Shown piece by piece: positions 58,925 to 59,819 of a stretch of DNA of 64,000 bases. Both the position numbers and the translations under genes were made by a program. The stretch lies in the NCBI RefSeq assembly GCF_058153355.1, contig NZ_CM177019.1; one strand, given 5' to 3'. A model generated the notes under the pieces. It did not search any database and was not told the DNA's origin. It worked only from the letters and a program-made list of their open reading frames with translations. The stretch's first letter is position 1. Every line of letters begins with the position of its first letter.

Positions 58925-59819
58925 TCTTCTGCTCGATTTTGGACATCCGGTTGCTTATTACCCTGGGCTCGTTAAATACATGGGAAGTCCGCACGCTGTT
59001 ATTTTCTTTGGTCAGATTTTTTACTGGCAGGATAAAGCACATGCAGCGGAAGGCGTACATAAAACGCGTGAAGAGATACAACACGAAACCGGACTTACAT
59101 TTGAACAACAGGCTGTAGCGCGTAAGCATCTTGTGTCCAGAGGCATTTTGGTTGAAACCAACAAGCGTCTTGAGCACAAAATGTTCTACCGTATAGATTG
59201 TGAGCGCCTTAATGAAATTATCAATGAAAACAATCAGTTTTCCCGGAATGGGGAAACCCGTTTTCGGGAAACTGTAAAACCCAATTTCGCGGAGGAGGGA
59301 AAGCCTTCACCGCGGACACGGGAAACCCCTCGCCGCGGAGAAGGGAAAACCAATTTCGATCTTACAGAGAATACAACAGAGATTACTTCAGAGAATACTA
59401 CAGAGAGTAAAAACACTATTGGCGCATCCGCTGACGCGTCTGCACCAGCACGTTCTGCCCGACAGGAATATTCACCGGAATTTGAACAGGCCTGGCAGGA
59501 ATATCCCAAACGTGCTGGTGGCAATTCCAAGTCAGCAGCCTTCAAAGCCTGGAAAGCCCGAATCAGGGAAGGTGTGACACCCGAAACCATGCTTGATGGC
59601 GTGAAGCGGTATGCCGCCTGGATACGTGCTACAGGAAATAACGGCACACAGTTCGTGAAGCAGGCAGCGACGTTCTTTGGACCTGATCGTCACTTCGAAG
59701 AATTCTGGCAACAGCCAGCCGCTCCCGGAGGTGGGCGACAGCGACAGGTCGATGTCCTGGCTGGCCTGGGAGCCATGTCTGACAAATTCGGTAAATCCAG
59801 TGACAAACTGACATTCTGA
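58911..59819 (+). CDS. replication initiator (lambda O-like functional analogue)
   Basis: ORF 58743..59819; internal ATG with SD GGAGGTGG; contains iteron-like repeats; followed by helicase loader and helicase genes. Confidence 0.6.
   Translation: MRPSDLLLDFGHPVAYYPGLVKYMGSPHAVIFFGQIFYWQDKAHAAEGVHKTREEIQHETGLTFEQQAVARKHLVSRGILVETNKRLEHKMFYRIDCERLNEIINENNQFSRNGETRFRETVKPNFAEEGKPSPRTRETPRRGEGKTNFDLTENTTEITSENTTESKNTIGASADASAPARSARQEYSPEFEQAWQEYPKRAGGNSKSAAFKAWKARIREGVTPETMLDGVKRYAAWIRATGNNGTQFVKQAATFFGPDRHFEEFWQQPAAPGGGRQRQVDVLAGLGAMSDKFGKSSDKLTF
59240..59410 (+). repeat. iteron-like direct repeats (putative phage origin) inside the initiator gene
   Basis: GGGAAACCC / GGGAAAGCC / GGGAAACCCC / GGGAAAACC copies, then ACAGAGA-type repeats at ~11-nt spacing (59365..59406). 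Confidence 0.5.

Follow-up and report, generated by a model that had tools for sequence, protein, structure and literature searches.

Where does replication start in a lambdoid prophage whose initiator protein has no detectable sequence similarity to lambda O? The question is raised by a 64,000-nucleotide stretch of contig NZ_CM177019.1 (NCBI RefSeq assembly GCF_058153355.1), called the window below in its full length, in which an initial annotation made from the letters alone had placed an iteron-like origin within an 'O-like' replication initiator gene. The segment 59244-59420 is, very probably, the theta-type replication origin of an Eru7-type lambdoid (Shiga-toxin-phage-like) prophage, embedded in the prophage's own initiator gene. 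It comprises an array of five direct repeats (iterons) followed by a block of four tandem 12-mers, which overlaps the least stable duplex of the gene.

The initiator gene (58911-59819, plus strand) is an open reading frame (ORF) of 909 nucleotides (nt) and 302 amino acids (aa), whose ATG is preceded by a GGAGG ribosome-binding sequence. Its product matches two PHROG initiator families, 270 ('replication initiation protein', 7.5e-66) and 9773 ('replication initiation O-like', 1.5e-36), and deposited records of Shiga toxin (Stx) phages label the gene 'phage replication protein O'. The AlphaFold2 model contains a predicted winged-helix N-terminal domain (N-domain; aa 1-108, predicted local distance difference test (pLDDT) mostly >70), a linker predicted to be disordered (aa 109-184, pLDDT <50), and a helical C-terminal domain (C-domain; aa 185-271) of the type PEFEQAW...YPKRAGGNSK. 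The epithet 'O-like' is thus apt for the architecture only and does not extend to the sequence, as a Pfam scan with an E limit of 0.01 gave no match to PF04492 (Phage_rep_O), a family that lambda O hits at 5.7e-36 when scanned in the same way, and a profile comparison of the two proteins with hhalign gave a probability of 0.2%, that is, no similarity.

The iteron array lies at 59244-59358 on the plus strand and is formed by five head-to-tail units of 23 base pairs (bp), the proposed binding sites of the initiator N-domain, with cores of the form GGGAAAnCC starting at 59251, 59274, 59297, 59320 and 59343. The exact core GGGAAANCC occurs four times in 101 bp (59251, 59297, 59320 and 59343), against an expectation of 1.87 copies in the whole window on both strands, so that the array greatly exceeds chance, and the remaining core is the degenerate GTAAAACCC; the count of five is based on the longer pattern GGGAAANCCNNNTTCG with at most two mismatches, all copies being on the same strand. 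At least four GGGAAA(C/G)CC-type direct repeats had been anticipated at this place, and four exact copies plus a degenerate one are indeed present. Their spacing had been put at 20-35 bp, and this has to be replaced by a period of strictly 23 bp, obtained by pattern search and also by Tandem Repeats Finder, the kind of check that the annotation had proposed, which returned period 23, the array 59244-59358 and a unit of approximately CGGAnnnGGGAAAnCCnnnTTCG. Iteron origins typically have a period of about two helical turns (PMC5043065).

The core offsets in the gene (340, 363, 386, 409 and 432) fall in codon phases 1, 0, 2, 1 and 0, and the cores are translated as G-E-T, V-K-P, G-K-P, R-E-T and G-K-T. 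As 23 cannot be divided by three and the core falls in all three frames, the iterons are a repeat at the level of DNA and not of the peptide. Together with the 12-mers they encode aa 112-167, inside the predicted disordered segment, where the protein appears from its structural model to be tolerant of almost any sequence. Dyad symmetry surrounds the first iteron (59239-59271, TTTCCCGGAATGGGG / CCCGTTTTCGGGAAA) and a second dyad lies at 59304-59344; single strands of the region fold better than shuffled ones (z about -3.1 on both strands), and the arrangement TTCCCGAAA...TTTCGGGGAA recurs in relatives. No Rfam family covers the origin region. Just 5' of the first iteron, the window carries a G at 59247 (CCCGGAAT) where all of about 55 close relatives have an A (CCCGAAAT), which costs the dyad around this iteron one base pair.

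The array is followed by four tandem 12-mers of the form ACAGAGAnTAC (59364-59411, plus strand), a proposed DNA-unwinding element recovered by Tandem Repeats Finder and motif search. The copies start at 59364 (ACAGAGAATACA), 59376 (ACAGAGATTACT), 59388 (TCAGAGAATACT) and 59400 (ACAGAGAGTAAA); ACAGAGA-type repeats had correctly been noted after the iterons, although their period is 12 nt and not about 11. By nearest-neighbour free energy, duplex stability over 40 bp reaches its minimum for the initiator gene at 59380-59420, a stretch that overlaps the last 12-mers and the AAAAACACTATT tail. Its value of -45.8 kcal/mol, against a mean of -56.8 and a standard deviation of 3.6 between 54 and 64 kb, is about three standard deviations above the mean and makes it the second least stable 40-bp duplex within that interval. 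The single strands of the block are unstructured (-1.3 and -1.5 kcal/mol, z +0.6 to +0.8) and its top strand is 67% purine, the A+T-rich region of lambda being likewise strand-asymmetric (PMC5043065).

Between clades with N-domain identity of at most 80%, identity at third codon positions reaches 85% for the first two 12-mers but 34% for the N-domain (37% at sites where the amino acid is the same), and the iteron block has an overall identity of 37%. The third codon positions of the 12-mer (its positions 3, 6 and 9) show 93-100% conservation, and the most variable position is the eighth, a second codon position. In the window initiator, glutamate is encoded by GAG in four of four cases in the 12-mers, against 19 GAA and five GAG in the rest of the gene; in three loci of high G+C content (L083-L085, 0.60-0.66), threonine is encoded in the 12-mers mainly by ACA or ACT, against mostly ACG or ACC in the rest of the genes. 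Most relatives read the 12-mers in a single frame, as T-E-x-T, but in Vibrio phage X29, Salmonella phage 118970_sal3 and Aaphi23 the motif recurs at a spacing of 9-13 nt with changes of frame, and unrelated peptides are encoded. The 12-mers are therefore constrained as DNA, and this degree of conservation suggests, as far as comparison of sequences can tell, a specific recognition, perhaps as single strands, beyond mere ease of melting.

The association between repeats and protein domains was clarified by two natural chimeras. The initiator of phage phiP27 (L17) shares the last 400 nt of the window gene at 94% identity, from about 59415 on, along with the DnaC-like and DnaB-like partners; matches start at query positions 505-507, which places a module junction at 59415-59419, and from there the homology runs through the rest of the gene. 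The phiP27 initiator has another N-domain, of the HTH_36 type, and other repeats at the equivalent position, TGACCCTTCAGAATCTG in five copies followed by two copies of a 24-bp repeat. Conversely, the chimera L051 (1501-2478) fuses a window-type N-domain, iterons and three 12-mers to a C-domain of the lambda O type (35% identity to lambda O residues 150-270, E 1e-25), diverges from the window directly after the 12-mers, and is followed by an adenine-methyltransferase-like gene, not a loader. From phiP27, with the same C-domain and other repeats, and L051, with the same N-domain and the same repeats, it follows that the repeat sequence travels with the N-domain. Moreover, the alignment of L051 with lambda O begins in the A+T-rich region of lambda, so that the 12-mer block takes the place of the lambda unwinding region.

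Relatives of the N-domain were collected by tblastn of phage genomes and by scanning IMG/VR with an alignment of five N-domain sequences. They range from 100% down to 27% identity and come from E. coli, other Enterobacteria, Klebsiella, Burkholderia, Aggregatibacter, Acinetobacter, Pseudomonas, Vibrio, Salmonella, Synechococcus and Arsenophonus. Every relative inspected has the same order, the N-domain coding region, then about two to six direct-repeat units, then the 12-mer motif, and the arrays checked for phase keep the 23-bp period in register with the downstream motif and with the window array. The iteron cores are clade-specific variations on a GGAAA theme: GGGAAAnCC in the window clade (E. 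coli), GGGGAAAGTCC in the Klebsiella clade, GCGGAAAGCGC in the Burkholderia clade, CGACGAAAACGC in the Acinetobacter clade and TGCGGAAAACCTGCAA in the Pseudomonas clade. Close E. coli relatives carry between three and five 12-mers.

A search for plasmids using a window-type initiator returned only phage-like circular elements of Arsenophonus, a result suggestive of autonomous replication but not proof of it. These are Arsenophonus nasoniae paNv_CH8 and similar circular records of 37-41 kb, phage-like 'plasmids' with holin and lysozyme genes. The locus (L216, 867-1652) carries a 57%-identical N-domain with its own repeats, degenerate 12-mers and a DnaC-like gene, and no plasmid replicon type is assigned in the record. 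These elements may be maintained or replicated through the same module.

The genes that follow the initiator encode its presumptive partners. A DnaC/IstB-type AAA+ helicase loader (59830-60708, plus strand) matches PF01695 (1.4e-15) and PHROG 50 ('DnaC-like helicase loader', 1.9e-89), with an NCBIfam DnaC match below the cut-off, and a DnaB-family replicative helicase (60705-62096, plus strand) matches PF03796 (3.3e-72), PF00772 (1.3e-05) and, below the curated cut-off, TIGR00665 (7.9e-92). The Pfam, PHROG and NCBIfam results thus agree with the annotation that DnaC-like and DnaB-like genes, and not a lambda P homologue, stand after the initiator. The description of the module as self-sufficient holds for origin recognition and helicase loading but not beyond, as no primase or polymerase gene is found among the genes identified next to it (from Cro to Q). 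Of the 58 loci that have the window-type C-domain and a callable downstream gene, 56 have a DnaC-like gene next, and after other C-domain types come different genes, in some cases a DnaB-like helicase gene straight away. This pattern is consistent with, rather than strong evidence for, a pairing of C-domain and loader. The loader also begins with some 80 aa of N-terminal extension in which Cys and His are abundant (CLMREGRGYCEKHGEYH...CCPDC; 59830-60100), a composition that hints at a zinc-binding module in front of the AAA+ domain; the extension is present in the downstream-gene cluster D0 as well.

The initial annotation had compared the locus to the lambda origin inside O, and this comparison is upheld in its main lines. 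The lambda origin and the probable origin in the window are both embedded in an initiator gene, where they occupy the linker-coding part that separates a DNA-binding N-domain from a loader-recruiting C-domain, the two functions being proposed for the window protein, and they do so at the same relative position (iterons at offsets 349-433 of the 900-nt O gene and at 334-448 of 909 nt in the window). Both have four to five initiator-binding repeats, proposed as such in the window, about 20-24 bp apart and with internal dyad symmetry, adjoined by a strand-asymmetric and easily opened region of low duplex stability, and in both, transcription of the early rightward operon passes through the site (PMC5043065). 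The tie between repeats and N-domain belongs to the same likeness. In contrast, the window N-domain has no sequence similarity to that of O, the iteron sequence is another one, as had been noted, and the proposed unwinding region is an array of conserved 12-mers instead of a plain A+T-rich stretch. The partners differ too, a DnaC-type AAA+ loader and a phage DnaB-type helicase in the window as opposed to lambda P, which hijacks the host DnaB. The window initiator does not carry a lambda-O-type C-domain, nor does a lambda P homologue come after it, and a window-type N-domain occurs with a lambda-O-type C-domain only in L051.

A second precedent is the Bacillus phage SPP1, where the order of initiator (gp38), loader (gp39) and DnaB-type helicase (gp40) genes is the same as in the window, and where oriL consists of direct repeats and an A+T-rich unwinding element inside the initiator gene, again the layout seen here (PMC6316719). 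The origin repeats of SPP1 gene 38 have been shown experimentally (PMC6316719). SPP1 encodes a helicase and a loader and draws primase and polymerase from the host (PMC6316719); the window module likewise encodes the first two and is proposed to recruit the others. It differs in that gp39 is not an AAA+ DnaC/IstB protein, as the window loader is, and in that its repeats and its A+T-rich motif (AACAATGAnAAC) are other sequences.

Similar modular initiators, with direct repeats in the middle of the gene and then an A-rich segment, are encoded by rep (ORF13) of the Lactococcus phage TP901-1, marked 'replication protein, experimental' in its record, and by phiP27 L17. This type differs from the window in its HTH_36-type N-domain, its other repeats and its lack of ACAGAGAnTAC 12-mers. 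We considered TP901-1 rep and SPP1 gene 38 as validation of the 12-mer, but the architecture alone is alike and the 12-mer is absent from both, so they are treated as analogues only. Finally, the iteron plasmids RK2, F, P1, R6K and pSC101 have phased iterons beside an unwinding element of short tandem repeats (13-mers) whose exact sequence matters, a layout like that of the window (PMC5043065). Their initiators are of the Rep_3/RepA type, their origins lie outside the gene and usually need DnaA boxes, whereas the window has no Rep_3 match in the Pfam scan and no DnaA box, and its proposed origin sits within the initiator gene itself.

With lambda (PMC5043065) and SPP1 oriL (PMC6316719) as models, we infer binding, opening, recruitment and origin firing to proceed as follows. 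Transcription of the early rightward operon (from Cro at 53773 through Rha and onward) would pass through the gene, and the initiator would be made. Its N-terminal winged-helix domain would bind the five iterons at 59244-59358 in a nucleoprotein complex like the 'O-some' of lambda. This complex, with negative supercoiling and probably transcription through the site, would open the adjoining 12-mer block (59364-59420). The C-domain could then bring the DnaC-like loader and the DnaB-like helicase of the phage to the separated strands, after which host primase and DNA polymerase III would take over.

Several points weigh against this reading. The initiator matches no family in a Pfam scan (E up to 0.01) or in an NCBIfam scan, which leaves the N-domain without a family, and a PDB sequence search returned nothing meaningful, so that the N-domain has no PDB sequence family either. 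A Foldseek search of the PDB with the AlphaFold2 model gave only generic and weak winged-helix matches (E 0.03 or worse), among them the RepA_N initiators 5kbj and 4pql (E about 0.1-0.2), and a specific fold family is accordingly not claimed. The A+T richness of the 12-mer block is only moderate (G+C content of 0.33 over 59363-59410), and the lambda unwinding region appears richer. Near the repeats no DnaA-box or IHF consensus was found, and promoter-like and terminator-like signals are at or below chance. The 58 loci behind the C-domain/loader association span two N-domain clusters but many are closely related, and the association rests largely on close relatives. A literature search found no published evidence of binding, opening or autonomous replication for this element or for any other member of its N-domain family.

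The 12-mer block is more widespread than the N-domain family. An exact-pattern scan of IMG/VR together with blastn of phage genomes located it in initiator genes of phages of Staphylococcus (phage 37, SpaA1), Bacillus (PM1, phiCM3, BceA1) and Geobacillus, as well as of Erwinia, Providencia, Acinetobacter, Klebsiella, Pseudomonas, Vibrio, Synechococcus and Burkholderia. Block-bearing loci in IMG/VR cover G+C contents of 0.29 to 0.60, and GC-rich Burkholderia-like relatives of the N-domain reach 0.66. Each block-bearing initiator gene has its own iterons immediately 5' of the block, and none of the N-domains concerned matches a Pfam family above the cut-off. Those that look unrelated to the window N-domain come from phages of Staphylococcus, Bacillus, Acinetobacter, Pseudomonas, Vibrio and Synechococcus. 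In E. coli, the 40-nt stretch 59358-59397 is matched at 97.5% in 1508 of 5426 complete genomes, only 100 of which contain the whole window-type origin. For example, in the E. coli B derivative NEBExpress, a prophage with dicB and ydfD carries the block GATCTTACAGAGAATACAACAGAGATTACTACAGAGAATAAAAACACT in the middle of a gene for a 321-aa protein (L088, 3542-4507) that has its own iterons (GGTCAAAATG, five copies), a C-domain of the lambda O type and an N-domain without similarity to that of the window by BLAST. We found no description of the 12-mer motif in the literature; older papers in subscription journals lay outside the search, and a prior description is possible.

Directly after the repeat block, several of these and other initiator genes contain a C-run/G-run dyad, GATCCCCC...CCCCC...GGGGGAA (L082 and L103, in the roughly 35 nt that follow the 12-mers; L004, about 2925-2950; and L209, 2632-2660, the Rac ydaU gene). 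It encodes DPP..P..G, is found with several other C-domain types, and recalls the inverted repeat to the right of the A+T-rich region of lambda. The ydaU gene of the E. coli K-12 Rac prophage was also considered as a link to the classical oriJ, and was set aside because it has mid-gene repeats of its own without the 12-mer motif.

The alternative that survives best, although we judge it improbable, is that the 12-mers are not an unwinding element but a short homology 'linker' for recombination of initiator modules, or a site for another factor such as primase or the helicase loader. The block does lie precisely on the boundary across which N-domain-plus-iteron modules and C-domain modules are swapped, and the near-identical 40-nt stretch recurs beside other iterons in the E. 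coli genomes just counted. Every 12-mer also carries CTG on the bottom strand, and CTG is the start-site trinucleotide of E. coli DnaG. Yet the motif persists across host G+C contents of 0.29-0.66, although synonymous sites in the flanking N-domain are already saturated, which is not what a recombination linker would predict. Beside the iterons, the block also ranks as the stretch with the lowest stability and the least structure, and it takes the position of the lambda unwinding region in the alignment of L051 with lambda O. The linker and unwinding roles are, in any case, compatible with each other.

Still less probable, in our estimate, is that the iterons are true initiator-binding sites that serve autoregulation, copy control or incompatibility ('handcuffing' or titration), with replication starting elsewhere in the prophage. 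Plasmid iterons do act in control as well (PMC5043065), in SPP1 a second origin, oriR, lies at a distance from the initiator gene (PMC6316719), and the present evidence does not place the start site. Nevertheless, iteron motifs outside the array occur in the 64-kb window at chance level only, with no second cluster, in every case the array adjoins the conserved 12-mer block with its low duplex stability, and the same layout is a functional origin in lambda and in SPP1 oriL (PMC5043065, PMC6316719).

The scenario named in the initial annotation as its refutation, in which the repeats are a by-product of a repetitive, low-complexity peptide linker with no cis-acting role, agrees with the predicted disorder of the encoded segment and with the predominant T-E-x-T frame of the 12-mers, but is excluded for practical purposes, and in our view barely credible, given the five different peptides encoded by the iteron core in three frames, the conservation of third over second codon positions in the 12-mers, the between-clade contrast with the N-domain, the uniform GAG codons, and the frame changes in X29, 118970_sal3 and Aaphi23.

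With the origin reading retained, a broader proposal concerns the 12-mer array itself. We advance it tentatively, as a possibility that we would not yet call likely: the array could be a previously undescribed, sequence-recognised origin-opening element, shared across bacterial phyla by a wide set of phage winged-helix initiators, in which variable iterons would provide replicon specificity and the constant 12-mers a strand-capture site for a conserved part of the initiator, for the loader or for the helicase. Such an element would be a phage counterpart of the 13-mers of oriC or of the DnaA-trios, and it may also act as the fixed joint for exchange of initiator modules.

The surroundings of the initiator are those of a lambdoid early-right operon, including NinH and tRNAs, with Cro at 53773-54012, a Rha protein at 55149-55859, an Ash/Rha protein at 57807-58469 and the Q antiterminator gene at 62602-63018. 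At the nucleotide level, the initiator gene shares 96-97% identity with its counterparts in a set of Stx1- and Stx2-converting phages, one of which is the Eru7 representative LC567818.1 (96.5% over 91% of the gene). Eru types are defined by two genes next to cI (PMC8951638, Fagerlund et al. 2022), and Eru7 has the same Cro, Rha, Ash/Rha and downstream Q neighbours as the window. By these sequence comparisons, the module matches the Eru7 replication type of Shiga-toxin phages. The same paper describes the replication proteins of Eru phages as a subject on which nothing is known, and does not mention iterons or an origin (PMC8951638); our literature search on iterons in Eru phages and on Aaphi23 found no description of this origin, older subscription journals being outside its reach.

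Other features of the region were recorded in passing. Four tRNA genes (63218-63525) lie directly 3' of the Q gene, and related Stx phages have a tRNA cluster (three genes in the record examined) at the same position, just upstream of stx. Between 56836 and 58049 there are three tandem units, in each of which an isrK-like small RNA (56836-56912, 57208-57283 and 57861-57937) precedes a C4 antisense RNA (56937-57024, 57300-57390 and 57962-58049), all above Rfam gathering thresholds. The last unit runs into the Ash/Rha ORF, and a 643-aa ORF that spans the units (55879-57810) is probably spurious. On the opposite strand, between the Rha gene and these repeats, a TumE-like toxin ORF (56437-56724, minus strand; PF20126, 2e-15) and an adjacent HVO_A0114-domain ORF (56076-56531, minus strand; 1.1e-24) may represent a toxin-antitoxin insertion.

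The element is a variant of the well-known design in which the origin lies inside the initiator gene, found in a clinically relevant phage type whose replication has so far not been described. Toxin output depends on phage replication, and the analysis supplies for Eru7 a candidate origin (59244-59420) with its set of initiator, loader and helicase. The 12-mers are kept at synonymous sites in phage initiator genes from Firmicutes, Proteobacteria and a cyanophage, each time beside different iterons, which points to a common, sequence-dependent opening step. They offer a simple natural case in which to ask why the exact sequence of an unwinding element matters, a question listed as unresolved (PMC5043065), and the motif can serve as a practical marker when phage genomes are annotated for origins and initiator genes, the N-domains concerned having no Pfam family.

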